Positions 12,396 to 60,926 of a stretch of DNA of 64,000 nucleotides are shown here, one piece after another. The stretch lies in the sequence record OL615013; one strand, given 5' to 3'. The notes under the pieces are model-generated. The model was not told the DNA's origin and made no database searches. It saw only the letters and a program-made list of their open reading frames with translations. The position numbers and the translations under genes are program-made. Source of the stretch: Shigella phage ChubbyThor. Within the stretch, counting starts at the first letter, position 1, and every line of letters begins with the position of its first letter.

Positions 12396-12471
12396 GACGA
12401 TGTAGTTCAGTCGGTAGAACGGTGGACTGTTAATCCATATGTCACAGGTTCAAGTCCTGTCATCGTCGCCA
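12396..12471 (+). tRNA. tRNA-Asn (anticodon GTT)
   Basis: Hand-folded cloverleaf: acceptor GACGATG/CATCGTC, D-arm GTTC/GAAC, anticodon stem GTGGA/TCCAT with loop CTGTTAA, T-arm ACAGG-TTCAAGT-CCTGT, discriminator G, CCA encoded. Confidence 0.8.
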
Positions 12472-12727
12472 GACAATGGGTGTGAACGAAAGTGAATAGG
12501 CACGAAGTACGCGACCGACAAGCTCCAAGCCTCTGTCCAATAGCCGAACGGAATCTGAAGACGACGATAGTAACGCCCACCAAATTCAGAGTGTAGAGGC
12601 TACAGTAGTGCGCACCTCACGGGTTGCTACACCGGACACTCTGATACAAATCTGCCGCTGCGTGGATTAGCTGAGGAAGGATGGCCGATGTCCTCGAGTG
12701 TGGCCCAGCACGCAGCGGTAGACCAAA

Positions 12728-12811
12728 TGTGAGTGTGGCAGAGCGGTCGAATGCAGGAGACTGTAAATCTCCCCGTAACAGCGCGGTGGTTCGAATCCAT
12801 CCACTCACACC
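12728..12811 (+). tRNA. tRNA-Tyr (anticodon GTA), type II with long variable arm
   Basis: Acceptor GTGAGTG/CACTCAC, anticodon stem GGAGA/TCTCC loop CTGTAAA, T-arm GGTGG-TTCGAAT-CCATC, discriminator A, CCA encoded. Confidence 0.75.
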
Positions 12812-12952
12812 AAACACAGTAAGCGTTGCAGCCACGCTGTGTATCTGACCAGAAGGCACTGGTCGCCAGTTAACCAATCGGCGCTGAGAAGCGCGGGGAG
12901 TTGGGCTACGGCAGATCAAATGCTCAATCGGGTGTGAAGCCCGTTCAAATTT

Positions 12953-13036
12953 CGCGGGAGCCATAGGGGTTGGACAGTAGCCGACTGATCATCGGCGACG
13001 ATCACTGGACAGGTTCGAATCCTGATCTCCCGCTCC
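12953..13036 (+). tRNA. tRNA-like element, possibly tRNA-Ile (anticodon GAT) with irregular D/T arms
   Basis: Perfect 7-bp acceptor GCGGGAG/CTCCCGC + CCA; stem-loop GCCGA-CTGATCA-TCGGC fits an anticodon arm; TTCGAAT T-loop present but T-stem has a mismatch/extra nt; could not fold a canonical D-arm by hand. Confidence 0.4.
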
Positions 13037-13040
13037 AAAT

Positions 13041-13129
13041 TGGAAGGTTGCCCGAGAGGTTTAAGGGACTCGACTGCTAATCGAGTGGGGCTTTTAGCCC
13101 CCGAAGGTTCGAATCCTTCACCTTCCGCC
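13041..13129 (+). tRNA. tRNA-Ser (anticodon GCT), type II
   Basis: Acceptor GGAAGGT/ACCTTCC, 3-bp D-stem CCC/GGG, anticodon stem CTCGA/TCGAG loop CTGCTAA, variable-arm hairpin GGGGC/GCCCC, T-arm GAAGG-TTCGAAT-CCTTC, discriminator G, CCA encoded. Confidence 0.8.
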
Positions 13130-13540
13130 AAATTTGCGATCATCGCGGAAATCCCAGACGCGAGTGGAGGCCAGGGTGAAGACTGGCACATGGGCACTGA
13201 CGGCAAAGGTGTTCTACCTCCTGGAATTGGGTGGCCTGAATGGTAGGGAAAGCAGCCAAGCGTTGTGGGTTCAACTCCCACTCACCCAGCCCCAGATGGA
13301 ATGGGTCCATCATCGCAAATCATATTTTGGGCGTGACTTCCTGAAGAGTTAGAAGGTGTGCATGCCGACTCTCTCGTAATCGGGTGTTTAGGAAGTTAAG
13401 AAAATCGCGGCGAGGATAGTGAAATGCAAATAGCTTTCTCTACGCCGACGACTTCAGGTTCGATTCCTGACGCGCTCTCCCATAAGGCAGTACCAGTGCG
13501 AAGTGTGTAGTCTTTTCAACCCATCCCCATCGATGTGGTA

Positions 13541-14915: not shown

Positions 14916-14950
14916 ATTCAGGAAATAATCTGAGATTCTCCTTTTCTATA

Positions 14951-14990
14951 CTCCTGTAGATACGCTATGATAAGCCAATGTCTACAGGAG
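14951..14990 (+). promoter_or_regulatory. SD-sequestering hairpin in 5' UTR of the PLP-enzyme gene
   Basis: 10-bp inverted repeat CTCCTGTAGA (14951-14960) / TCTACAGGAG (14981-14990); 3' arm contains the AGGAG SD, ATG at 14998. Confidence 0.45.
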
Positions 14991-14997
14991 AAATAGA

Positions 14998-16254
14998 ATG
15001 AACAAATTCGCTGCACAACCCCTCGCTCCATATATTCCGTTTCACACGTTAGGGAAAGGTCCATACAAAACGATTTTTGATGTCCTCTCTCTTCATCGTG
15101 AACATATTCACTGGGAAGACTACCTCTACAAACACACTCCGTGTGAACTCGTCCCCAACCCCGAAACTAACCAGCAGGTCTGGTTCAAGCGTGAAGATTA
15201 CTTCGCGCCGCTATCTTGTTATATGAATGGCAAGCAGGGCATCAACGGCAGCAAACTCCGTCAGGCCATCTGGCTCATGGTTGAGCACCTGAAGGCCGGA
15301 GGCTCCCCTGACATCATCCACGGCACTGTCGTTGGTAGTCCGCAGTCCCCTATGGCGACGGCAGTCTCTCGGCACTTCGGCGGCAAGACAACCACTGTAC
15401 TCGGCGCGACCAAACCCACCACTTGTATGAACCATGATATGGTGGAAATGAGTGCCTGGTTCGGTAGTGAGTTCAACTTCGTCGGCTCCGGCTACAACAG
15501 CACCATCCAACCTCGCTGTAAGAAGCTCATCGAGCAGGTGAATCCAAAGGCGTACTACCTGGAATATGGTATTACCCTGGACCACACAGTGCATTCCCCC
15601 GAGCGCATCGCAGGATTCCATATGCTGGGCGGCGAGCAGGTTGCTAACATCCCTGACCATATCACCGATCTGATCATCCCTGCTGGATCATGCAACTCAT
15701 GCACAAGCATCCTGACCGGGCTGGCGATGCACCCTAAGCCTAATCTGAAGCGTGTTTATCTGATTGGGATTGGACCAAACCGCCTGGACTTCATTGAGAG
15801 CCGCCTGCGCATCATCGGCAAACAGGCCAATCTGCCTCACATTGTCGACTTCACCCGTCGTTATCACGACAACCCAGACTATGTGCACGGCAAGAAGGAG
15901 CTTCAGCATGCCTCTAAGAGCGTTTCGCTGGCTGGCCTCCTAAGTGGTATCAGGCAGAAGGGAGAGCCAGAGGTCGTGCTTCCTCGCTTTGAGGTACACC
16001 ATTGGGATCTTCACACCACCAATTGGGTTCGTTACAATGACCTGATGGATTATCAGTGGGGTGATATCGAACTGCATCCTCGCTATGAAGGCAAGGTCAT
16101 GACCTGGATCCAGCAGAACAAGCCCGAGTTGCTCAATGAGAACACTCTGTTCTGGATCGTGGGAAGTAAACCATACATCGAGCCGATGAAGGCTGCATGC
16201 CCTGAGCTGGCTATCCCAGATGAAGTGAACGTCAACACCTTCACTCCTTCCTGA
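14998..16254 (+). CDS. PLP-dependent enzyme, fold type II (ACC deaminase / D-cysteine desulfhydrase / Trp-synthase-beta-like)
   Basis: 418-aa ORF; segment FKREDY...NGSKLRQAIWLM resembles the KREDx...GGNKxRKLE PLP-lysine region of the ACC-deaminase family. Confidence 0.5.
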   Translation: MNKFAAQPLAPYIPFHTLGKGPYKTIFDVLSLHREHIHWEDYLYKHTPCELVPNPETNQQVWFKREDYFAPLSCYMNGKQGINGSKLRQAIWLMVEHLKAGGSPDIIHGTVVGSPQSPMATAVSRHFGGKTTTVLGATKPTTCMNHDMVEMSAWFGSEFNFVGSGYNSTIQPRCKKLIEQVNPKAYYLEYGITLDHTVHSPERIAGFHMLGGEQVANIPDHITDLIIPAGSCNSCTSILTGLAMHPKPNLKRVYLIGIGPNRLDFIESRLRIIGKQANLPHIVDFTRRYHDNPDYVHGKKELQHASKSVSLAGLLSGIRQKGEPEVVLPRFEVHHWDLHTTNWVRYNDLMDYQWGDIELHPRYEGKVMTWIQQNKPELLNENTLFWIVGSKPYIEPMKAACPELAIPDEVNVNTFTPS

Positions 16255-16260
16255 TCCCTT

Positions 16261-16291
16261 CTAAATACCCCATACAACCCGTGTGGGGTAT
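16261..16291 (+). promoter_or_regulatory. late-promoter-like box CTAAATACCCC whose tail forms a hairpin with the SD of a 31-codon uORF
   Basis: CTAAATACCCC at 16261-16271; 8-bp stem ATACCCCA (16265-16272) / TGGGGTAT (16284-16291); small ORF ATG at 16294. Confidence 0.4.
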
Positions 16292-16360
16292 CTATGAAAC
16301 CTTTCTTGAATATTTCCGTGATATCGTCCTGTACAAACCCGGCCTGGCAGTGCGGGAAGC

Positions 16361-16371
16361 CTAAATACCCC
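16361..16371 (+). promoter_or_regulatory. late-promoter-like box CTAAATACCCC upstream of acidic-protein gene
   Basis: Exact second copy of CTAAATACCCCATA, 29 nt upstream of ATG 16400; GAGGA SD between. Confidence 0.45.
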
Positions 16372-18426: not shown

Positions 18427-21426
18427 ATGACCGTTTTCTATACGAACGTTGCCCGCCGGGGCAATGACCTGTTGATTCGAATCGCAGATGACATGGGTAA
18501 TCGCCGTCTGTTGAAAAAGAAATTCGAACCCACTCTCTATTTACCCACGGCTGATTATTCAAATGTTGAAAAGGTCGGCTTGCTCAACGAACCTTTGATC
18601 TCCAAGAAGTTCCCTGACATGCGCACTGCTGACAACTACCTTGAAGAGTACAAGGAAGTCCAGGGTGCAGCCATTTACGGGCAGACCGATTATGCATACC
18701 AGTTCATCGCCCACAGCTTTCCTGGGAAGATCGAGCCGGATTACTCCAATATCCATATCGCCAACCTCGATATCGAAGTGTTCACCGCCGGGTGGAAAGA
18801 TGGGGAGATGACCAAGGGTCCATTCCCTCATCCGACTATTGAGCAGCAGACGTTCAAAGGTAGCGAGGCACGCATCCGCCGCTTCCATCAGCAGGTACTG
18901 GCCAACCATGACTTCATCCGTGAGCACTTTCCCAGTTCCTTTATCAGCAATAATGTAACTGATCAGTTCCCTATCATTGATAGCAATGGCAAGATCACCC
19001 AGGACATGAATGCAGCGTTCCCTATCACGCTCATCCAGCTTCAGGACATGGCGACCAATAAGTTCATGGTGTGGGGTATGCCGTGCGCGAAGGATCGTGC
19101 GAAGTTCAGATACGATCCAGAAGACGCGGAGATCGGTGGACTTGAGGTGGAGTACAAGGAGTTTGTCACCGAGCAGGATCTGCTGCGATCTTTCCTTGAC
19201 TTCTGGTCACAGCGTCAGTTTGATGGCTGGACAGGCTGGAACATTGAAACGTTCGATAGCCCGTATCTTGTTGAGCGCATGAACCAGGTTCTGGGCGAAG
19301 CCGAAACATCGCGCCTCAGTCCTTGGGGTATCATCAAGAAGCGTATCATTCGCGATAAGAAGGGCGATATCACGACGTATCAGTTCGTGGGCTGTCCTAT
19401 GCTCGATTATATGCAGATCTACAAGAAGCACACGTACACCACCCGTGAGCGGTACTCTCTTGATTGGATTGCTTACTGTGAGTTGGGTGAGAAGAAGATG
19501 GACTACAGTGAGAGCAAGTCGCTCTTTGATCTGTACTTCAATGACTATGCCAAGCACACCCGATATGGTATCAAGGACGTCAAGCTGGTATGGCGTCTCG
19601 AACAGAAGCTGCGTCTGCTCCAGCTGATGTTCGTCCTTGCGTACCGCACCAAGTCGAACTATGAAGACGGCCTGGGTACAGTGGCTCCGTGGCTGGCCAT
19701 GTGCTACTATCGTCTGTATGAGAAGGGCATCGTGCCTAAGATCCAGCGTGTATACGATGGTCCGACCGATTTTGAGGGCGCATACGTCATGGAGGTGACA
19801 CCAGGAATCTACTTCTGGGTCTTCTCTGAGGACTTGAACTCCCTCTACCCTCACATCATCCAGCAATACAACCTCGGTCCTGAGACTATCGTTGGCGACA
19901 AACACCAGCGCCGTGAGATCATTGAGGCTATGTGTGAAGAGCTGGCTGCTCAGATGAATAACATGGCAACGCCGATGCACAAACGTCGGTTGATGAAAGC
20001 CCTTCACGACAAACTGTTGCGCGCGATTGACGAACGCCTGCAGGTTGTTGATGAACTGGTTGCTCTGGGTGAGTTCCACTTTGAAACCCTGCGCCGCTAC
20101 AACGTGTCCTTCACGCCGAACGTTCAGTTCTTCAGCAACGAGAAGATGTCGTTCCTGTCTGAAATCATGCGCGGTATCTACAGCGACCGTAAAGTAGAGA
20201 AGGCCAAGGGGCTGAAGTACGAGCAGTGGGCTGGTTGGTGTAAAGAGATGGCGAAGGGTGACTTCCATCTTGAGTCCGCCATGAAGTCCCGCTACTACGA
20301 TCCAGAGTGGTATGAAGAGCACAAGAACATCGATCTTGATGCACTGACCGAAGTGATGAAGAAGTGGGAAGATCTGGGCGTTGCCCAAGATACCCTACAG
20401 CAAGGTCTGAAGATCTTGATGAACGCAGGTTATGGCGCGATCTCAAACGTCTGGTTCAAAGAGTACTTCAACCTCAACATCGCCGAAGCCATCACAACGT
20501 CCGGTCAGCTGATCAACAAGTGGAACAAGCGCTACACCGATGACTATCTGAACAAGCTGTGCGGCACGACAGGCCAGGACTTCGTCATCGCGGGTGATAC
20601 CGACTCCAACTACATCTGCATTGAGCGTCTTGTCAAGCAGTTGTGGCCTGATGTTACTGACCATCATGCTATGGTTGATAATATCGACCAATGGATCAAA
20701 GACAACTACCAGCCGAAGACCAATGAGTGGGCACAGCTTCTGTGTAACACCATGAACGGATTTGAACAGCGCATGGTGTGGGAGCGTGAAGTAATTGCAT
20801 CAGCTGCCGTCTGGCGAGCCAAGAAGATGTATGCCATGGCTGTGTACGACAGTGAGGGTATCAAGTACGAGAAGCCGAAGATCAAGTTCAAAGGTCTGGA
20901 AGCCCGTAAGTCCACCACGCCGGAATGGTGTCGTGAGCGCCTTGTCAAGTGCTATGAGAAGATCCTACTCGGCACCGAAGAGGAAGTACAGACGCTCATC
21001 TCCCAGTACAAAGAGGAGTACATGAAACTCTCTGTAGACGATATCGCCAAGGCGTCAGGCGTGTCCGACATAGAGAAGTGTGTGGCCGCCGACGGCTCGT
21101 TCATCTCTGGTGCTCACTATGCTGCCAAGGCTTGTGTGGGTTACAACCGCATGGTAGAGAAGAACGAAGACCTCGGCCTGCCGATGATTGAGTCGGGTGA
21201 TAAGGTCAACATGGTACTGCTGAAGAATGGCAACCCGTTTGGCCAGAATTACTTCGCATATCCTGAGTTCTTCCCCGAGGAACTGGGTATGGGTAAATGG
21301 GTGGATTACCATACAGCCTTTGAGAAGTCCTTCATCGACCCGATTCAGTCCATCCTTGACGTGGTCGGCTGGTCACACAAGCGTCGTGTGAACCTTCTTG
21401 CCATGATGCAAAAGAAGAAAGGTTGA
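18427..21426 (+). CDS. DNA polymerase, family B (T4 gp43-like) with 3'-5' exonuclease domain
   Basis: 999-aa ORF; Exo I motif ANLDIEVF, polymerase motif A DLNSLYPHII, motif C IAGDTDSNYI. Confidence 0.95.
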   Translation: MTVFYTNVARRGNDLLIRIADDMGNRRLLKKKFEPTLYLPTADYSNVEKVGLLNEPLISKKFPDMRTADNYLEEYKEVQGAAIYGQTDYAYQFIAHSFPGKIEPDYSNIHIANLDIEVFTAGWKDGEMTKGPFPHPTIEQQTFKGSEARIRRFHQQVLANHDFIREHFPSSFISNNVTDQFPIIDSNGKITQDMNAAFPITLIQLQDMATNKFMVWGMPCAKDRAKFRYDPEDAEIGGLEVEYKEFVTEQDLLRSFLDFWSQRQFDGWTGWNIETFDSPYLVERMNQVLGEAETSRLSPWGIIKKRIIRDKKGDITTYQFVGCPMLDYMQIYKKHTYTTRERYSLDWIAYCELGEKKMDYSESKSLFDLYFNDYAKHTRYGIKDVKLVWRLEQKLRLLQLMFVLAYRTKSNYEDGLGTVAPWLAMCYYRLYEKGIVPKIQRVYDGPTDFEGAYVMEVTPGIYFWVFSEDLNSLYPHIIQQYNLGPETIVGDKHQRREIIEAMCEELAAQMNNMATPMHKRRLMKALHDKLLRAIDERLQVVDELVALGEFHFETLRRYNVSFTPNVQFFSNEKMSFLSEIMRGIYSDRKVEKAKGLKYEQWAGWCKEMAKGDFHLESAMKSRYYDPEWYEEHKNIDLDALTEVMKKWEDLGVAQDTLQQGLKILMNAGYGAISNVWFKEYFNLNIAEAITTSGQLINKWNKRYTDDYLNKLCGTTGQDFVIAGDTDSNYICIERLVKQLWPDVTDHHAMVDNIDQWIKDNYQPKTNEWAQLLCNTMNGFEQRMVWEREVIASAAVWRAKKMYAMAVYDSEGIKYEKPKIKFKGLEARKSTTPEWCRERLVKCYEKILLGTEEEVQTLISQYKEEYMKLSVDDIAKASGVSDIEKCVAADGSFISGAHYAAKACVGYNRMVEKNEDLGLPMIESGDKVNMVLLKNGNPFGQNYFAYPEFFPEELGMGKWVDYHTAFEKSFIDPIQSILDVVGWSHKRRVNLLAMMQKKKG

Positions 21427-21479: not shown

Positions 21480-21830
21480 GTGATTGAAATGAAACTCAAT
21501 AAGATTCTTCTGGTGTGTGCTCTGGCTTTCTCTACCACCGCATGCTCTACCCTTCTGGACGTTGCGTCTACTGTAGACCTTGACGCGCCGACGTTCACCA
21601 ATGAACAAGCCGTGGCCAAGATGGAAGATACCATTAAGGCGCATGCGGCGTTGGATAACGCCACCCCAGGTCCGCTCCAAACTGTCTGCAACTATGACGA
21701 TTCCATCCAGGAAGACGAAACCTACCACTGCACCACCTACGTGAAGCAGGCTTCCGTCGTTCTGTATGCGGATTGTACCGAAGAACAGTGCGTTGCTACG
21801 GGCTACGACAAAGTGGAGAAAGATCAATGA
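21480..21830 (+). CDS. putative lipoprotein
   Basis: 116 aa; signal peptide followed by lipobox-like LAFSTTAC. Confidence 0.45.
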   Translation: MIEMKLNKILLVCALAFSTTACSTLLDVASTVDLDAPTFTNEQAVAKMEDTIKAHAALDNATPGPLQTVCNYDDSIQEDETYHCTTYVKQASVVLYADCTEEQCVATGYDKVEKDQ

Positions 21831-22606
21831 ACAACCTGGTCTGTCTCTATGATATGAAATCAAAGGTCGGTGGTCTGTATCGCGTCCTCGTGGATGTTGA
21901 CCTGACGCTGGTCGACAGCCTCTCCCCTTGGGTGCAGTGGTTCAATGAAGAGAACATCGCTGCCGCTGCTATCGCTACGGGGGAACATAAGTCATATCAG
22001 TTCCAGCCGATCACCAAAGAGTGCTATATGGCTCATGCTGGCGACCTGGCTATTCTGATGCGAGAACGTGCACATCCGGCGTGGTTGATACGCCGCGTGT
22101 ACCTCGCTGGGCAATGGATGTATGCTCCTACAGGGCGTGATCCTATGGATTGGTGGCGTCGCCCCGATCTGTATGCCAAGATGAACCCGCTCCCGGGTGC
22201 TTACGAGTTCCTGGTGAATCTGAAGAAGATTCTGCTCGAAGACTTTGACAATGTTGAATTCATCGCAGTGTCCAAGTGTGAGCCGGAACACGAGCGCAGC
22301 AAGCGCCAGTTTGTCTACGACAAGTTCCCTGGCATCTTCAACGGATTTGTCAGTACTGACGAAAAGCATCTGCTGGCAGGCGATGTCCTGATTGATGACA
22401 ATCCGAAGTATGTTGAGCCGTGCGGCCTGAACAACATCTTCGTCATCTTTGTTCCTCAGGGCAATTATGAAAAACTGGATCTTTCGAATTCGGAAGATAT
22501 GCTTTATATTAAACCAGTAGAAGGCCAGAACCACTTCGACTTCCTGAATCACAATATTGTTGAAGTGGTGAACCGCTTGATTGGTCATTATCAATACGTC
22601 CGATAG
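21827..22606 (+). CDS. HAD-superfamily phosphatase (putative 5'-deoxynucleotidase)
   Basis: ORF track 21773..22606; start ATG 21827 overlaps upstream stop (ATGA); N-terminal DVDLTLVD matches HAD motif I DxDxT. Confidence 0.5.
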   Translation: MNNLVCLYDMKSKVGGLYRVLVDVDLTLVDSLSPWVQWFNEENIAAAAIATGEHKSYQFQPITKECYMAHAGDLAILMRERAHPAWLIRRVYLAGQWMYAPTGRDPMDWWRRPDLYAKMNPLPGAYEFLVNLKKILLEDFDNVEFIAVSKCEPEHERSKRQFVYDKFPGIFNGFVSTDEKHLLAGDVLIDDNPKYVEPCGLNNIFVIFVPQGNYEKLDLSNSEDMLYIKPVEGQNHFDFLNHNIVEVVNRLIGHYQYVR

Positions 22607-22615
22607 GAGGACATC

Positions 22616-22921
22616 GTGCAAGAACAATCCAAGTTTGGGGAAACCCCAGACAAGCGTTCCGGTGATAGCGATATGGATGGCGTGATTATCCATGTCAACA
22701 ACTTTATTCGCCAGCAGGAGACTCCGACTCCTATCGGCGCAGCCAAGGCTCTTCATGACGTACTGGTAGAGATCGGTCAGCGCTCTGAAGCGGATGAAAT
22801 CTTCTATAACTTCGACGACCAGTATAAAGTGAAGTTTGAAGAGAATGGCCGTCCACAGGTTGCTGTATTCTGGGCACCATGGATGGGCGGCGTGAGCTGG
22901 CGTATTGAGGATGCTGTGTAA
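22616..22921 (+). CDS. hypothetical protein
   Basis: 101-aa ORF in co-directional array. Confidence 0.45.
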   Translation: MQEQSKFGETPDKRSGDSDMDGVIIHVNNFIRQQETPTPIGAAKALHDVLVEIGQRSEADEIFYNFDDQYKVKFEENGRPQVAVFWAPWMGGVSWRIEDAV

Positions 22922-23607
22922 TGCTGTCGCTCTACCTGATCACGAATCTCGTCAATCATAAATTCTATATCGGTGTCACTTCAGAACCGGATAGGCGGTT
23001 GGCTGAGCATAAGTGTGGTCAGGGGAGCATTGCATTACAACGAGCGTTCAAGAAATATGGTGAAGATCAGTTCAAGTTTGAAGTTCTGTTCCGAGGGAAA
23101 GATTCGGTTATCCTTCAGATAGAGTCTGAACTGGTCTGCCAGGAGATCCTCGATAGCGGGTGGTGTTACAACATGGTCGCCGGGGGTGGGAAGCCTCCAT
23201 TGGCCACGCCAGAGTCATCCGCAAAGAGCGCCGCAACCCGCAAACGTTTGATCGCTGAGGGTAAGATTAAACCTCCACCAAGACTCACCCCTGAAGCACA
23301 AGCCAGAAAGGGTAAGATCATAAGCAAATTGATGTCAGAAGGGAAGATCCCCAAACCACCAAGACCTTCCTCTGAATCTCAAACGCGTGGAGGGGAAACT
23401 AGGAAGAGGCTGCATGCTCTTGGCCTGATAGACATTGGTCCTGGCCGTGATGAAACGATTTACAAATGGCAGCACAAAGATGGTCGCATCGTTGAGTTAA
23501 GGAGGTGTGACATGGAACTTCAATATGGCCTCCCTTCCGGTAATATAACGAATCTCTTGAAAGGTAGGGCTAAAACATGTCTCGGTTGGAGAATATTAAA
23601 TGGCTAA
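22921..23607 (+). CDS. GIY-YIG homing endonuclease (free-standing)
   Basis: N-terminal LYLITNLVNHKFYIGVT...RRLAEHK matches GIY-YIG catalytic module; basic C-terminal DNA-binding region. Confidence 0.7.
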   Translation: MLSLYLITNLVNHKFYIGVTSEPDRRLAEHKCGQGSIALQRAFKKYGEDQFKFEVLFRGKDSVILQIESELVCQEILDSGWCYNMVAGGGKPPLATPESSAKSAATRKRLIAEGKIKPPPRLTPEAQARKGKIISKLMSEGKIPKPPRPSSESQTRGGETRKRLHALGLIDIGPGRDETIYKWQHKDGRIVELRRCDMELQYGLPSGNITNLLKGRAKTCLGWRILNG

Positions 23608-24517
23608 AATAATTGTAGTGAAAGGCACCTCGGCCACGGGCAAGGGTACGAGAGTGGTCCAGTTCATCGAATGGCTCCGTACGAAGCTGGAGCCTACCGA
23701 ACTCACCTACACCATTGGTGGCAAGACGCGCCCGTTTGGCCTGAAATTCGAAGAGCTGAAGTTGATCTTCGTCGGCCAGTACACTGTGTCCAACAAATCC
23801 GGCCTGGCTTCCTGGACTTCCATGGACGCCATTCATGCTGCCACAGGCTCGGGTGATATCGCTCGTGACCTGGTCAAAGGCTGGCTGGCTCAGGGTTACA
23901 CCCTGGTGTGTGAGGGCGAACCCCTCATGCTGTCGGACAAATGGCGTCCTGAGTGGATGTTCAAGAACTATCCGATTGAATCATTGGCGCTGCTGTACTT
24001 TGCGTACCCCGACCGCTATCAGTACGATGCCCGCATCCGTGGTCGCTCTGGTAAAGAAGCAGGGGACTCCGGCTGGTCTCGCAACGAATCTTACTCCAAG
24101 GAGTTTGAGAAGTCGAAGGCCGAAATGCTGGCGCTGGGCTTCACCCCTGTGGTTGACAACTACAGCGGGCAGGATATCCTGTATAAAGCGCCAGAGGCCA
24201 ACACCCAGGAGTTCACGACCAAACAGCAGTCCGAGTTGGCGGTGCTCCCATACGACGCCCCGCTGTGGGTTGTGGGTAATGCGATTTGTCATCAGATACG
24301 GTCCGAACTGCGTGAAGTGAACATGGACACCAAAGACTTCTATGGTTTCTGTGAGACCGACCCAATGACCCGTGAGGTCGGCGGTGATGATCCTTTGGCG
24401 CACAGAGTGCCTGAGAAGCCGCAGAAGGCATCCAAAACTAAAACCAAGGCGAGCGCCCAGCCAGAAGCACCGAAGGCAGCGTCGCGCTCCCTCCTTGACC
24501 TGATGAAGAAGGGGTGA
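23600..24517 (+). CDS. P-loop kinase / NTPase (candidate DNA 5-hydroxymethylpyrimidine kinase)
   Basis: 305 aa; Walker A-like VVKGTSATGKGT at N-terminus; functional assignment inferred. Confidence 0.5.
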   Translation: MAKIIVVKGTSATGKGTRVVQFIEWLRTKLEPTELTYTIGGKTRPFGLKFEELKLIFVGQYTVSNKSGLASWTSMDAIHAATGSGDIARDLVKGWLAQGYTLVCEGEPLMLSDKWRPEWMFKNYPIESLALLYFAYPDRYQYDARIRGRSGKEAGDSGWSRNESYSKEFEKSKAEMLALGFTPVVDNYSGQDILYKAPEANTQEFTTKQQSELAVLPYDAPLWVVGNAICHQIRSELREVNMDTKDFYGFCETDPMTREVGGDDPLAHRVPEKPQKASKTKTKASAQPEAPKAASRSLLDLMKKG

Positions 24518-24717: not shown

Positions 24718-25070
24718 AAATTCAAATCCCTCGCGATGCTGTGGCTGTCGCAATTGACTACACCGGAAACGCCAAGCACATTACTGCTGTGCGCCTGATT
24801 CCTGAAAAGAACTGCGTGATCCCTCAGTTCCAGCTGAATGCCAACCCGTCGTCTAAAGACTTCGGTCAGTGGCTGCAAGCGGCTCCGTTCCGCACCCAGA
24901 CGAATGCCCAGATGTTCATCTCGGGTAAGACTCACACTGCAGCCCGTCTGTGGTTCGTGACCGCTGACCGTCGCTTTGTCGATATGTGGGAGCGCCCGAT
25001 GGGGTTCGTGAAACCAGAAGACATTCAGCTGGCTCCTGAAGAGGAAGCGAAAGATGACGCATCTATCTAA
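24714..25070 (+). CDS. hypothetical protein
   Basis: ORF track 24579..25070; ATG at 24714 overlaps upstream stop. Confidence 0.45.
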   Translation: MKIQIPRDAVAVAIDYTGNAKHITAVRLIPEKNCVIPQFQLNANPSSKDFGQWLQAAPFRTQTNAQMFISGKTHTAARLWFVTADRRFVDMWERPMGFVKPEDIQLAPEEEAKDDASI

Positions 25071-26280
25071 AATGCCGACGGGATATACACCCCCGGCTGA
25101 ATGGAAGTATCCGATTGACCTGGCTGTTGATTATCGCAAGCCTGAGAATCGCATGTACCTGCTCAAGGCTTGGGTGGAGGCGCTGTCCTACACCGAAGAG
25201 CACAATCAGCAGATGCGTCTGATGGACTATGCTATCGAAGTCACTGAAGGTATCAGCCTCGAACAGAAAGTCGAGCGCAAGATCTGGATGGCATTCCTTT
25301 GGGGTTGTTGCTATAACGCCATCGGTCCATGGACGATCTACAGTGAGTTCCCTGTGCCACCACAGTCCAAAGAAGAGATGCAGCGCTTCTCTGATTGGTA
25401 TAACCTGAACTTTGATCGCATGCGCTTCGATACCGACTGTCGCTACCGCAAGTCGAAGATGATTCCATGTGTTCAGTCCTATATTGACTGGCTGGCTGGC
25501 CGTACTCAATATGACGCTTTCCGTGAGATGCTGGTGTGCATCGATAAAGCAGAACAATTCACTCAGCTGTGGGACACGGCGATGTCCTGGAAATACTTCG
25601 GTCGCCTCAGTGCCTGGAACTTCCTGGAAGCCCTGAACATGGTCTTCGGGGACGAATACACCATTGACGTCCCTGGCTTCATGCTGCGTGACCGTGATGG
25701 TAGCGAGTCCAACCGCAACGGCGCGGCGTTCTTGTCCAACCGTGACGACTGGGTGACCAAGCACGGGAAGAAAAAGATCAACGGTTGTCCTATCACGGAT
25801 GAAGAGTGTGACATCCTTGAGGCCGACCTTGAGCAGGCGTTCCAGGATTGCGTGGCTGAGTTCGGGCATCTGACGTTCATCAATCGCCTGAACTTTGAAA
25901 CCTCCGGCGCATGCTGGCTGAAGAAGTTCTTCCGTGAGAAGAATACCCGTTACATTGGGTGGGATGCCGAGCGTACCTGGGATGAGATCGACTACATGGA
26001 ACGCATCTGGCCGGAGTACTCCTGTGCAGCGCTCTGGGAAGCCCGTTCGCTCTGGCTACCAGATACCCTGTTATGCGAAAAGGCACCTCCAGGGCACGTT
26101 CCAGGCGTTCAGAAGTGGAAGATGCCTGTGTTCTTTGAGACTGGCGTTCCTCTGCACATCTGGCATCTGCAAAAGGGTACGCGCTGGGAGCCTGACCAGG
26201 TGTATCAAGAATTGGGTAAACCGAAGATTGATAAACCGAAGTCCAACAGCGTCAACCTCATGGCACTCTTGAAACGCTGA
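25054..26280 (+). CDS. hypothetical protein (408 aa), candidate base-modifying transferase partner of the kinase
   Basis: Large Trp/Cys-rich ORF immediately downstream of kinase; function inferred from context only. Confidence 0.45.
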   Translation: MTHLSKMPTGYTPPAEWKYPIDLAVDYRKPENRMYLLKAWVEALSYTEEHNQQMRLMDYAIEVTEGISLEQKVERKIWMAFLWGCCYNAIGPWTIYSEFPVPPQSKEEMQRFSDWYNLNFDRMRFDTDCRYRKSKMIPCVQSYIDWLAGRTQYDAFREMLVCIDKAEQFTQLWDTAMSWKYFGRLSAWNFLEALNMVFGDEYTIDVPGFMLRDRDGSESNRNGAAFLSNRDDWVTKHGKKKINGCPITDEECDILEADLEQAFQDCVAEFGHLTFINRLNFETSGACWLKKFFREKNTRYIGWDAERTWDEIDYMERIWPEYSCAALWEARSLWLPDTLLCEKAPPGHVPGVQKWKMPVFFETGVPLHIWHLQKGTRWEPDQVYQELGKPKIDKPKSNSVNLMALLKR

Positions 26281-38430: not shown

Positions 38431-38934
38431 TTGAGAAACTACATCATGATGCTGTTAATGAGCGTTCCACAGAACAAGATGACCCCTGAAACAGAGGGTA
38501 AGAATCACTTCAACATCTACAGCCAGAGCCAAACGGAACTCGGGCGCTTCCTCTCGCATTTTGCCCATCATCCAGTGACTACCTATGAGCACGGCGTGTT
38601 CAACTCCATGGAAGGCTACTGGTATTGGCTAAAGTACAGGGATGACAACCTGCGCTTGCTCGACGGCTACGAAGCCAAGCAATATGGGCAGGGGTTGGCG
38701 GCCACTCGCATCGCTGTCCTTGATCCATCATCCGAAGAATTCAAGCGGGACATTCTGTTTGCCACCAGCATGAAACTCCAGACAATGCCCGACCTGCTGA
38801 AGATCAGATTGGCGTACAGTCGACTCCCTCTGATCCATGCATACGTTCGGAACGGGAAATATAGTTTTCAAAACTCTATGGACTATATCATTGCACACAT
38901 TAATCGTCTCCGCATACAAGGAACTCTGAAATGA
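38431..38934 (+). CDS. NADAR (YbiA/DUF1768)-like domain protein, candidate ADP-ribose N-glycosidase
   Basis: 167 aa; FNIYSQS...ELGRFLSHFAHHP...MEGYWYWLKY resembles NADAR signature (NFYS...G.FSNFA..P...SEHYFQAQKF) as recalled. Confidence 0.4.
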   Translation: MRNYIMMLLMSVPQNKMTPETEGKNHFNIYSQSQTELGRFLSHFAHHPVTTYEHGVFNSMEGYWYWLKYRDDNLRLLDGYEAKQYGQGLAATRIAVLDPSSEEFKRDILFATSMKLQTMPDLLKIRLAYSRLPLIHAYVRNGKYSFQNSMDYIIAHINRLRIQGTLK

Positions 38935-39515
38935 AATTTATACACACCATCGTCGGCACTTCCTATGATTGCACCGCACACGAGCCAAACCGCTCGCCCG
39001 TGTTTGTTCTGAACAAACTGGGTGAAGAGATCTGTGAACTGTCTGATGTGTTTCATGGTATCGGCACAGCGTCCGAACCGTTGAATGGTGAAGTTGCTGA
39101 CGTCATTATCTCTGCCATTGACCTCCTGTATGTTATGGATTTCAATGACCAACAACTGCATGGTTGCATGACCAAAGAAGAGTTGGTCGACTCGGTTCAG
39201 ACACGTTTGGGGTTGTGTGGTGATTGTTCTCCCGAATATCTTGAAGCAGATTGGTTCCGCATTATCGATCGTGAACCCCAGAAGCATCTGAACCTCATTC
39301 ACCATTACCATGGCCGGATCATCCGATTATGCAATCAGCCTTATCGTAGCCAAGACATTCTAGAGAGGCTCGTTGCTAATTTGATCAAACATGTCGCACG
39401 GATGGCTTGCGGTGAAGGTGCCTTGCACAGCGTGAATATGTTGAGTACCCACATCAAAGTAGAGCACGCCATTGAACACAAAGTTGAAAAGTGGCGCATT
39501 AAATTTGGCCTATGA
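38931..39515 (+). CDS. MazG-like nucleoside triphosphate pyrophosphohydrolase
   Basis: 194 aa; LGEEICELSDV ... EVADVIISAIDLL matches all-alpha NTP-PPase EExxE/D motifs. Confidence 0.45.
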   Translation: MKFIHTIVGTSYDCTAHEPNRSPVFVLNKLGEEICELSDVFHGIGTASEPLNGEVADVIISAIDLLYVMDFNDQQLHGCMTKEELVDSVQTRLGLCGDCSPEYLEADWFRIIDREPQKHLNLIHHYHGRIIRLCNQPYRSQDILERLVANLIKHVARMACGEGALHSVNMLSTHIKVEHAIEHKVEKWRIKFGL

Positions 39516-46713: not shown

Positions 46714-46947
46714 ATGAATCCTCGGGAAACTGCTATGACTACAGCAAGAAGTTACAGAAAGAACTTCAACATCGAAGGGATTGAGTTCTACCACCATTAC
46801 GCCCAGGACACCCATGGCACTGTATGCAACACATACATGCTTGACGGTCGCCCTGTAGGTTCCGATGAGTTCTATCGTGTTTTGCGCGAGTCTACAGAAG
46901 AATCCCTGTCTTACATTATCAATGCCAACGGATTGATTAAACCATGA
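46714..46947 (+). CDS. hypothetical small protein
   Basis: 77-aa ORF. Confidence 0.4.
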   Translation: MNPRETAMTTARSYRKNFNIEGIEFYHHYAQDTHGTVCNTYMLDGRPVGSDEFYRVLRESTEESLSYIINANGLIKP

Positions 46948-47630
46948 TCAACGTATCAATAAACGACCGAGATTTCGTCCACGCTGTTATGACAAACAAC
47001 AAAGACCCTCTTGCGTACAACGGGGAGAAGGTTACTCTGTTCTGGTCAGGCGGCGTGGACAGCACGTACATGCTATTCTGGCTGTTGGCTCACGGGTACG
47101 AAGTTCACACGATCTACTGCGAACTGGAGAACAACTCCTTCAAGGTGAAGCGTGAGAACTGGTCGCGCAAGAAGATCAGGGAATGGGTGACCACAAATTC
47201 GCCGAGGTTGAACACTCATTGGCATCACAGAGAAACCCCGATCAGCAAAATGAGCATCCAGTCTGGTGAGTTCCGGCCTTGTCTGGCTCAAGCCCCTGTG
47301 TGGTTGGTGAACACCCAATTCGCGGGTGGCCATTTTGATCGAGGACTGCCAAGAACTTATGTGATGGCATACGTCAACGGAGACGACGCTCTACACTGGA
47401 TCCCTGCCTTCAACAAGATCGTGGAGGGTTATAACATGTTGGCCAAAGACGGGCATGAGATCACCGTTCTCTTCCCTCTCGCCAGCATGAAGAAGACATG
47501 GTTCTACGAAGCCTTGTCGCCAATCTACGGGCTGATGACCTGGTGTGAATATCTCGTTCTGAAAAAGAACTGTGAATGCCCCGCTTGTGTCCGCCACCGT
47601 CATGAACTTTCCGTGTTTGAGGGGAAATAA
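46944..47630 (+). CDS. PP-loop ATP pyrophosphatase (QueC/ExsB-like)
   Basis: 228 aa; SGGVDS PP-loop motif near N-terminus; C-terminal Cys cluster WCEY...CECPAC like QueC zinc site. Confidence 0.55.
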   Translation: MINVSINDRDFVHAVMTNNKDPLAYNGEKVTLFWSGGVDSTYMLFWLLAHGYEVHTIYCELENNSFKVKRENWSRKKIREWVTTNSPRLNTHWHHRETPISKMSIQSGEFRPCLAQAPVWLVNTQFAGGHFDRGLPRTYVMAYVNGDDALHWIPAFNKIVEGYNMLAKDGHEITVLFPLASMKKTWFYEALSPIYGLMTWCEYLVLKKNCECPACVRHRHELSVFEGK

Positions 47631-49250: not shown

Positions 49251-49592
49251 ATGACCCCATTAAAAGAAATGTATGAGCGCCTGGCTGAACTGCAGGCGAA
49301 GGAAAAGCGCTTCTCGGAAGAAGAGACAGAGCTGTCCGAGCTGAACACTTTGATCGCCACTCGCGAGAAGTACCTCCAGCGCTACATCAACCATCCTCCC
49401 CACATGGTGGAGCGTGTGTCTGAAGCGATCATGCCGTTTGCTGGGCGTGAGTTTAATGAGCAAACTCGTGAAGAGATACTCAAAGTCATCGTAGCAGAAG
49501 TCCATTCCATGGTCTCCCTCGGCCAGATCTTTGGCCGCGCAGACCAGGAGGACATGATCTTCCTTCTGAACAAGAATGTGGTGGTGAAATAA
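49251..49592 (+). CDS. hypothetical protein
   Basis: 113-aa ORF. Confidence 0.4.
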   Translation: MTPLKEMYERLAELQAKEKRFSEEETELSELNTLIATREKYLQRYINHPPHMVERVSEAIMPFAGREFNEQTREEILKVIVAEVHSMVSLGQIFGRADQEDMIFLLNKNVVVK

Positions 49593-50095
49593 TGTCCATC
49601 AAGCCCCGTATGATGTTTGCGCACATGCGCTCGGCTCATGCATATGCACTGTCCAGCTATGCTCGGCGCCTGAAGGTCGGCTGTGTTATCGTTGACCCAA
49701 ATATTGACCAACCTGTTGCCATCGGCTGGAACGGGACTGCTCCTGGTGCTCCTAACGTCTGTGAGCAAGAAGTGGACGGTCAGTTGGTAAGCCTCGAAAG
49801 TGTTGTCCATGCTGAAGAGAATGCCCTGGACAATATACGAAAGGCTCACACCGGGCTTGTAATGTTCGTAACACACAGCCCCTGTCCGAGATGCACGAAG
49901 AAGATAATCGAAAGCGGTAATATCGACCAGATCTTTTACAATGTGCCATATCGAATCACAGACGGCATCGTTGAGATGATGAACGCTGGCATTGAAGTCT
50001 ATCGCATGGTCGACCAGTACGCCGTCGTCAAACATTGCTTTGATACCGAAGGCAAATTAACATCCACCCCTGTTTTAGTGAACCCTGACAAGTAA
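49592..50095 (+). CDS. cd: dCMP deaminase (cytidine/deoxycytidylate deaminase family)
   Basis: 167 aa; zinc-binding HAEENAL and PCPRC motifs. Confidence 0.75.
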   Translation: MSIKPRMMFAHMRSAHAYALSSYARRLKVGCVIVDPNIDQPVAIGWNGTAPGAPNVCEQEVDGQLVSLESVVHAEENALDNIRKAHTGLVMFVTHSPCPRCTKKIIESGNIDQIFYNVPYRITDGIVEMMNAGIEVYRMVDQYAVVKHCFDTEGKLTSTPVLVNPDK

Positions 50096-60710: not shown

Positions 60711-60926
60711 TCACTTCCTCATCAGTGAGAGCAGGTTGACCACAGCCGGACGCGCATCAGGGGCGTAGAAGACGTCCTGAGAGTGCCTCTTACAGCACGG
60801 GCAATCCTTCGTGGCGATTACACAGGGAGCCTTGTCCACGGCAAATCCGGCGGCTTCGGCTTCCTTCACGGTGGTGAATGGCAGGTAAGCACTTGTGCCC
60901 TGCCCTCCGCATGAACATTCCATCAA
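60711..60926 (-). CDS. small Cys-rich protein
   Basis: 71 aa; CSCGG...CPCCKRH. Confidence 0.35.
   Translation of the reverse strand: MMECSCGGQGTSAYLPFTTVKEAEAAGFAVDKAPCVIATKDCPCCKRHSQDVFYAPDARPAVVNLLSLMRK

Follow-up and report, generated by a model that had tools for sequence, protein, structure and literature searches.

The Predicted Decarboxylase Gene and Its Partners

The DNA analysed here (the window) is a stretch of 64,000 nucleotides from Shigella phage ChubbyThor (sequence record OL615013), in which the gene at positions 14998 to 16254 encodes a fold type II enzyme dependent on pyridoxal 5′-phosphate (PLP), predicted to remove a carboxyl group from serine attached to thymine in DNA. 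At the nucleotide level, the window shares 96.7–98.8% identity with Shigella phage Ag3 (Agtrevirus, Ackermannviridae), and it is collinear with the ViI-like phages, running from the tail-spike and baseplate genes through the conventional genome start (rIIA) to a point inside the gp41 helicase gene. The open reading frame (ORF) picked out in the initial annotation is real: it begins with ATG, fills 14998 to 16254 exactly on the + strand, encodes 418 aa and is preceded by the Shine-Dalgarno sequence AGGAG, 7 nt 5′ of the start codon.

Direct protein comparison with gp226 of Salmonella phage ViI (YP_004327553) aligned 414 of the 418 aa without gaps, at 92% identity, while orf00226 of phage Ag3 is 99.5% identical and phrog_3650 is matched with E=4.7e-239. 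The ViI gene occupies the same position 5′ of the DNA polymerase gene, has the same partner enzymes and shares both the 5′ leader hairpin and the loop motif described below; the window protein is 6 aa shorter at its N-terminus, which is divergent. The predicted Schiff-base lysine is also common to both, K86 being paired with K92 of gp226 in the pairwise alignment. This lysine lies in the motif GINGSKLRQ, is invariant in 36 homologues and is aligned with the Schiff-base lysine (GGNK) of 1-aminocyclopropane-1-carboxylate (ACC) deaminase. The initial annotation regarded the enzyme as unusual phage cargo, a view that does not hold for the ortholog of a characterised protein, in the same synteny and with homologues in at least 343 deposited phage genomes. 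The gene itself is already known, as are its pathway and phage group; it is a further instance of an anti-restriction DNA-modification enzyme characterised before, with nothing new in itself.

Two partners proposed at the outset were well chosen. The P-loop kinase at 23600 is a 5-hydroxymethyl-2′-deoxyuridine (5-hmdU) DNA kinase, and the product of 25054..26280 is an amino acid:DNA transferase (AADT), orthologous to the serine:DNA transferase of ViI; comparison with profiles of known hypermodification families, suggested as a check, recovered HMUD2 for the former and ADDT for the latter (Table 1) as well as phrog_3650 for the decarboxylase. NCBIfam contains no model for any of these three proteins. 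The order of the decarboxylase, kinase and transferase genes is identical in ViI, Gloob, Ag3, Klebsiella phage May and Erwinia phage phiEa2809. The dCMP deaminase and nucleotide hydrolases invoked at first are likewise present (Table 1). Together with a MazG-like protein, the dCMP deaminase and an NT5C-like nucleotidase plausibly shape the nucleotide pool, and the deaminase would supply dUMP for a dUMP hydroxymethylase encoded outside the window.

A tblastn search of the window found neither ViI gp67 (the second kinase) nor the ThyA-like hydroxymethylase, dnk or dUTPase. The window stops in the gp41 helicase gene, just short of the cluster in which ViI carries the gp67, ThyA-like, dnk and dUTPase genes, and the ThyA-like gene, which adjoins gp67 in ViI, lies just outside it. 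The queries did not include gp160, whose position in ViI corresponds to a part of the genome beyond this window.

Table 1. Positions of the decarboxylase gene, its partners and the peptide motifs in the window.
Feature	Position	Strand	Basis or sequence
PLP-dependent (fold type II) O-serinyl-thymidine decarboxylase (predicted), ortholog of ViI gp226	14998..16254	+	ORF, homology, fold
Disordered internal loop of the decarboxylase, aa 301-326	15898..15975	+	pLDDT (model confidence) < 50; motif KSVSLAGLLSGIRQK (~15919-15966)
T4-like family B DNA polymerase (gp43)	18427..21426	+	Pfam DNA_pol_B and exonuclease domain
DNA polymerase C-terminal tail, reference copy of the motif	21382-21423	+	...KRRVNLLAMMQKKKG
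5-hmdU DNA kinase, HMUD2 type (PF18747), ortholog of ViI gp243	23600..24517	+	E=9e-159; 84% identity
Kinase C-terminal tail	24479-24514	+	...AASRSLLDLMKKG
Amino acid:DNA transferase (ADDT, PF18724), ortholog of serine:DNA transferase ViI gp247	25054..26280	+	E=1.4e-60; 88% identity
Transferase C-terminal tail	26245-26277	+	...KSNSVNLMALLKR
71-aa Cys-rich protein (ortholog of Vi01_049c), further candidate clamp partner	60711..60926	-	end ...AVVNLLSLMRK
Conserved 5′ leader hairpin of the decarboxylase gene, pairing Shine-Dalgarno AGGAG (14986-14990)	14944..14997	+	RNA fold; fully conserved block from 14932
NT5C-like 5′-deoxynucleotidase	21773..22606	+	PF06941 E=2e-8; 79% identity to ViI Vi01_194
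MazG-like protein	38931-39512		
dCMP deaminase	49592..50092	+	PF00383 E=8e-17; 66% identity to ViI dCMP deaminase

The Predicted Hypermodification Pathway

In phage ViI, gp67, gp160, gp226, gp243 and gp247 suffice to make 5-(2-aminoethoxy)methyl-2′-deoxyuridine (5-NeOmdU) from DNA containing 5-hmdU (PMC5889632). Work with purified proteins showed that gp243 and gp67 phosphorylate 5-hmdU within DNA and that gp247 transfers labelled L-serine through its side-chain oxygen, leading to O-serinyl-thymidine (O-SerT) (PMC8989533). Purified gp226, for which a Trp-synthase-beta-like fold with K92 as Schiff-base lysine was predicted, is yellow, binds PLP and decarboxylates O-SerT DNA to a nucleoside of 301 Da, while an intermediate heavier by 44 Da remains in its absence (PMC8989533). 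5-NeOmdU was detected in ViI, CBA120, CBA6 and Vibrio phage 1.255.O (PMC5889632) as well as in Taipeivirus phiHS2, and a 2024 review regards the pathway as conserved family-wide.

The pathway can be assigned to the present phage because its enzymes are orthologous to those established for ViI by Lee et al. (2018, PNAS; 2021/2022, NAR). The first step would be the conversion of dUMP to 5-hmdUMP by a phage ThyA-like dUMP hydroxymethylase (gene outside the window), followed by incorporation of 5-hmdU into DNA by the phage polymerase. The kinase would then phosphorylate the base in DNA, and the transferase would let the side-chain oxygen of L-serine take the place of the phosphate, which leads to O-SerT. 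In the decarboxylase, PLP held by K86 would make a Schiff base with the tethered serine's free alpha-amine, and removal of CO2 would yield 5-NeOmdU. The initial proposal of an enzyme for amino-acid adducts on 5-hydroxymethyl-pyrimidines in DNA agrees well with the activity of gp226 on O-SerT DNA, an adduct of 5-hydroxymethyl-uracil. Judged from these orthologies, the decarboxylase very probably catalyses the final step of the thymidine hypermodification by which ViI-like phages (Ackermannviridae) make 5-NeOmdU, a role to be read jointly with the proposed recruitment of the pathway to a sliding clamp considered below.

A Peptide Shared with the DNA Polymerase

The disordered loop of the decarboxylase contains the motif [S/N]-L-x-x-[L/M]-[L/M]-basic, which is also found at the C-termini of the DNA polymerase, the kinase, the transferase and the 71-aa Cys-rich protein, the last of which has no match in Pfam or NCBIfam. 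The resemblance is evident when the loop (KSVSLAGLL) is set beside the polymerase tail (RRVNLLAMM). The candidate clamp-binding peptides of this phage are HASKSVSLAGLLSGIRQK in addition to the kinase, transferase and polymerase tails given in Table 1. Counting only matches within 12 aa of a C-terminus, the window has four occurrences of the pattern [NS]L..[LM][LM] (0.17 expected) and ViI has six (0.35 expected), values reached by none of 300 shuffles in either case.

The five hypermodification proteins of ViI all bear this motif or something close to it, at the N-terminus of gp67 (MSYSLKGLLKR), in the internal loop of gp226 (KSVSLAGLL) and at the C-termini of gp243 (SVSLLGLMRK), gp247 (SVNLMSLLKR) and gp160 (SVNLLDRLKK), the last of which has Arg where a hydrophobic residue is required and so falls outside the strict pattern. 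Copies of the motif also terminate the ViI polymerase and a Cys-rich protein of 70 aa, and gp55 has FSLEDIM near its end, again outside the strict pattern, with Ile at one hydrophobic position. ViI encodes the sliding clamp gp45 and the clamp loader gp44/62. A further ViI protein, Vi01_046c, starts with MSLKNLLKR and has a weak PspA-like Pfam match; no homologue of it was found in the window.

From these sequences, it is reasonably probable that the motif is a sliding-clamp-binding peptide and that hypermodification is tethered to the clamp. The decarboxylase, by its disordered loop, and the kinase and transferase, by their C-terminal tails, would dock on the phage gp45-type sliding clamp, which would let modification follow the replication fork. 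No earlier report of such a signature on hypermodification enzymes was found in the pathway papers or in a wider literature search, so that it appears to be new.

Co-Variation of the Motif across Lineages

Within the PLP family, the loop is an insertion that varies between lineages, and its motif tracks the tail of the cognate polymerase. This was followed in five Ackermannviridae lineages (Table 2).

Table 2. Polymerase tail and corresponding peptides of the modification enzymes in five Ackermannviridae lineages.
Phage	Polymerase tail	PLP loop	Kinase tail	AADT tail
Window (Agtrevirus)	RRVNLLAMMQKKKG	KSVSLAGLLSGIRQK	SRSLLDLMKKG	NSVNLMALLKR
ViI (Kuttervirus)	RRVNLLSMMGKKG	KSVSLAGLLMGIREK	SVSLLGLMRKA	SVNLMSLLKR
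Klebsiella phage May	RRVNLLAMMGKKG	KSVSLATFLGR	SSNVLAMMLRK	KSVNLMSLMKK
Erwinia phage phiEa2809	RRVNLMAMLKKQQDKG	KAKNLLDIMKAGR	TNSILRHFGASK	SNNLLSLFGR
Vibrio phage 1.244.A	KKARKLW	KTRRLFGGE	KTKRLW	KTRKLW

In Vibrio phage 1.244.A the motif takes the form K-x-[KR]-[KR]-L-[WF] and is carried by the polymerase, the gp33 coactivator, the kinase, the AADT, a gp160-like protein and the PLP loop; the gp160-like tail is TKRLW, the gp33 tail KTRKLF, and a gp55-like protein has ARLF near its end. Three further ORFs of this phage, NVP1244A_078, _096 and _191 (MG592609; 60040-60306, 72672-73208 and 136459-136929, respectively), share the same type of tail and are candidate clamp clients.

A third form occurs in two T4-like metagenomic contigs, in which genes for a TET/JBP dioxygenase, a PLP enzyme, an AADT and a Ploopntkinase3 protein are clustered (L019, 8656-12808; L020, 8631-12817) about 2 to 4 kb upstream of genes for the gp45 clamp and the gp44/62 clamp loader. 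The motif is of T4 type here, with SLExFF on the tails of the TET/JBP proteins (LSLESFFE and ASLEDFFS) and AADTs (NSLEGFFV and ISLERFFE) and [ID]xxFF in the PLP loops (DIDRFFDGN and GIGNFFGDN); a gp55-like protein of L019 has a tail of the same type, IGIENFIGESDE. The content of the cluster implies a predicted route to a Ser- or Gly-derived hypermodified thymine which would start with post-replicative oxidation of T and not with a dUMP hydroxymethylase.

The three motif types belong to different lineages, and each genome is enriched for its own type only. In the Vibrio phage and the T4-like contigs, the motif varies together with the tails of the polymerase, gp33 and gp55, which suggests clamp tethering. 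Pseudomonas phage M6 has no such tails; the 39-kb stretch of it that was searched is without a gp45-type clamp gene, and its polymerase is different. Two loci of the P0035/P0040 lineage (L009 and L012) are uninformative on co-variation because polymerase, gp33 and gp55 are lacking there. On these sequence comparisons, the general statement that in phages with a T4-type replisome the kinases, AADTs, gp160-like proteins, TET/JBP dioxygenases and PLP decarboxylase each copy the clamp peptide of their cognate polymerase, and that the pathway rides gp45 behind the fork as a viral parallel to PCNA-coupled DNMT1, is somewhat better supported than its negation.

Proposed Clamp Docking and Competing Explanations of the Motif

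In T4, the tails of gp43, gp55 and gp33 are interchangeable gp45-binding epitopes (PMC2988020). The gp43 tail reads EKASLDFLFG and gp55 ends in SPSLDFLYEAND; the window motif is in register with T4 SLDFLF, the T4 epitopes and the window motif having in common [S/N]-L-x-x-hydrophobic-hydrophobic. The closest parallel is T4 DNA ligase, which binds gp45 via EPEGLDFLFD, a disordered loop in the interior of its sequence (Shi et al. 2018, PMC6212786), an interaction discovered because this loop resembles the polymerase tail (PMC6212786). Like the decarboxylase, the ligase bears a disordered loop in its catalytic domain with a copy of the C-terminal hydrophobic motif of the cognate polymerase. The two systems differ in that the motif carriers of T4 are replication and transcription proteins whereas those considered here are base-modifying enzymes, and in that the window motif is basic (…LLxxxxK/R) whereas that of T4 is acidic; clamp binding in the present phage is a predicted interaction.

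The recruitment of DNA-modifying enzymes to proteins that encircle DNA is found elsewhere. DNMT1 binds the clamp PCNA by a PIP-box (PCNA-interacting peptide), which couples maintenance methylation to replication. In phages, ParB-dependent T-dioxygenases are DNA-modifying enzymes recruited through a DNA-encircling clamp (PMC13229309). Both cases illustrate the same recruitment concept with unrelated proteins and clamps and serve as an analogy only.

Several observations weigh against clamp tethering. The shuffle statistics are illustrative only, because the patterns were defined after the tails had been seen, and no gp45 clamp gene lies in the window. The kinase tail of phage phiEa2809 is degenerate, the Ploopntkinase3 proteins of both T4-like contigs are without the motif, and the tail of ViI gp33 ends in KSKKLI, outside the ViI-type pattern. 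The gp33 tail could also speak for another explanation, in which the shared motif binds a different hub (a single-stranded DNA-binding protein, RNA polymerase or an assembly factor), acts as a stability or degradation signal, or reflects common descent of low-complexity tails, and the same is true of C-terminal matches in two structural-looking ViI proteins, Vi01_066 and Vi01_087c. This explanation is a possible but distinctly less probable one. Indeed, gp45 is the sole known common partner of the T4-like gp43, gp33 and gp55 tails, the register agrees with that of T4 SLDFLF, and three lineage-specific sequences are each common, within a genome, to unrelated folds and to the polymerase, gp33 or gp55. 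In addition, such tails are absent from M6, for which no gp45-type clamp gene was found in the stretch searched and in which the polymerase is different, and a copy in an internal loop has its exact precedent in the ligase of T4.

If correct, clamp tethering would offer a testable mechanism for how post-replicative hypermodification enzymes find new phage DNA and act on the phage genome, and a possible reason for partial, patterned substitution. A copy of the polymerase tail would also be a simple signature of further DNA-acting enzymes in T4-like phages, among which the 71-aa Cys-rich protein of the window and several Vibrio phage ORFs are candidates.

The Modified Base

The initial annotation proposed that the chemistry of the pathway may differ from described cases. 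On this reading, the Agtrevirus would make a base other than 5-NeOmdU, through a different amino acid or further tailoring, with the decarboxylase still an ortholog of gp226. The literature search found no nucleoside analysis of any Agtrevirus, and there are small local differences from ViI, namely the loss of an ART-PolyVal-like gene 3′ of the PLP gene and the insertion of a GIY-YIG gene 5′ of the kinase. The missing gene, however, is ADP-ribosyltransferase-like and outside the reconstituted pathway, and the transferase, the enzyme that selects the amino acid, shares 88% identity with its serine-specific counterpart in ViI. Radical S-adenosylmethionine (radical-SAM), FAD-dependent, acetyltransferase and glutamine amidotransferase proteins were not detected among about 20 window proteins scanned around the cluster and elsewhere. 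Moreover, far more divergent relatives, Vibrio phage 1.255.O and Taipeivirus phiHS2, still make 5-NeOmdU (for the former, homologues of the PLP gene in its close relatives, about 51% identical, stand in for its own gene in the comparison). A different base is hence very unlikely. The function guessed at first was right, and new chemistry is unsupported because the decarboxylase, kinase and transferase are orthologs of gp226, gp243 and gp247, the two partner enzymes being 84% and 88% identical to those of ViI.

Fold and Family of the Decarboxylase

The original description of the protein as an ACC-deaminase/Trp-synthase-beta-like fold type II PLP enzyme is borne out by the profile of the 36 homologues, the alignment of K86 and a structural search. 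The alignment of homologues served as the basis of both the profile search and an AlphaFold (AF2) model. The profile matches structures of ACC deaminase and D-cysteine desulfhydrase with E=2e-5 over part of the protein. The model has a pLDDT of 88.4, and Foldseek related it with a probability of 1.00 to D-cysteine desulfhydrase, ACC deaminase, SbnA, CysK/M, serine dehydratase and TrpB, with a best E of 3e-11 and 12–17% sequence identity to the matched structures. According to this model, the decarboxylase has a Trp-synthase-beta-like two-domain fold.

Some results count against the assignment of the enzyme and its pathway. The Pfam family PALP (PF00291) is matched with E=1.1e-7 and 32 bits, under the 35-bit gathering cut-off, although a precomputed PF00291 match is present on many homologues. 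A phmmer search of the PDB with the single sequence returned chance matches to integrase fragments only, and the profile of homologues was needed for this reason. Finally, orthology is the basis on which enzyme activity, substrate and 5-NeOmdU content are predicted for this phage.

With ACC deaminase and D-cysteine desulfhydrase (PDB 1rqx, 1f2d, 1j0a and 4d8t), the decarboxylase shares its fold, the place of the PLP lysine (GGNK in those enzymes, NGSK in the decarboxylase) and a conserved YEGK motif. At the sequence level, it falls outside these families, with 12–17% identity and no NCBIfam match, and the 26-aa disordered insertion is absent from them. While they are small-molecule lyases and deaminases, gp226, the ortholog of the window protein, decarboxylates a residue attached to polymeric DNA.

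Misnaming of pathway genes is widespread in deposited genomes. Homologues of the decarboxylase have been deposited as ‘threonine ammonia lyase’, ‘threonine dehydratase’, ‘ACC deaminase-like’ and ‘DNA repair protein’, ‘guanylate kinase’ and ‘homing endonuclease’ are names given to the 5-hmdU DNA kinase, and ViI gp67 is entered as ‘terminase small subunit’. That the decarboxylase is a small-molecule metabolic enzyme unrelated to DNA (threonine ammonia-lyase, ACC deaminase or D-cysteine desulfhydrase), as the first three of the decarboxylase names and its nearest solved structures, D-cysteine desulfhydrase and ACC deaminase, might lead one to think, is exceedingly improbable given the only 12–17% identity to those enzymes without an NCBIfam equivalog match, the action of a 92% identical ViI protein on O-SerT in DNA, and the constant company of a 5-hmdU DNA kinase and an AADT, the gene even being fused to the kinase in some cases (P0107; PMC8989533). 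Database labels such as ‘threonine ammonia lyase’ and ‘guanylate kinase’ are wrong for genes of the 5-NeOmdU pathway.

Pseudomonas phage M6 gp52, the C-alpha-glycinyl-thymidine decarboxylase, belongs to the same enzyme class and has the same role of final decarboxylation on thymine in DNA. The two proteins are at best distant relatives because their profile comparison is weak (hhalign probability 33%, E=4.5e-4). M6 gp52 (278 aa) is without the inserted loop and without a polymerase-like motif; it needs an upstream radical-SAM isomerase, and its substrate is derived from Gly and not, as here, from Ser.

A Conserved Leader Hairpin

The 5′ leader of the decarboxylase gene folds into a hairpin (Table 1) with a free energy of -25.1 kcal/mol (z=-7.5), a value equalled by none of 200 shuffled sequences. 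The same fold is found in ViI, Gloob, May and Ag3. Over the 70 nt 5′ of the start codon, the window shows 100% identity to Ag3, ViI and Gloob and one mismatch to Klebsiella phage May (Taipeivirus), whereas the coding sequence diverges beyond ATG AAC to the point that the first ~25 codons are unalignable between genera. The Erwinia phage has a different hairpin, in which the Shine-Dalgarno sequence is also paired and which is not significant alone (z=-2). Rfam contains no family for the leader hairpin, which is unique in the window, and its 5′ block, GAGATTCTCCTT, does not recur there as a regulatory motif would, with 4 loose matches against 5.7 expected. The masking of the ribosome-binding site by a hairpin suggests that the decarboxylase is under translational control.

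Neighbouring Genes

ViI (Vi01_183) and Gloob (gp182) have an ART-PolyVal/DUF3990-like gene 3′ of the PLP gene; it is absent from the window and from Ag3, with no sign of a functional difference. A remnant of 19 aa from its C-terminus is left at 16305-16361, in the gap between 16255 and 16399, flanked by two exact copies of CTAAATACCCC at 16261 and 16361, a sequence which resembles the late-promoter consensus reported for ViI-like phages. Extra tailoring by Gloob gp182, labelled ‘N-acetyltransferase’, was considered and rejected, since its Pfam match is ART-PolyVal/DUF3990-like and the gene is absent both here and in Ag3.

Upstream of the kinase, an ORF of 228 aa for a GIY-YIG homing endonuclease (22921-23607) is located between a DUF7254 gene and the kinase gene, with whose start it shares 8 nt; ViI, Gloob and May have no such ORF in this place. 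The three tRNAs of the window, Asn-GTT, Tyr-GTA and Ser-GCT, form a cluster at 12396-13130, upstream of the PLP region, as in Ag3. Further downstream, 46947-47612 encodes a homologue of QueC-like PP-loop ATPases with 60% identity to ViI Vi01_023 and, in Pfam, a weak match to the QueC N-terminal part only.

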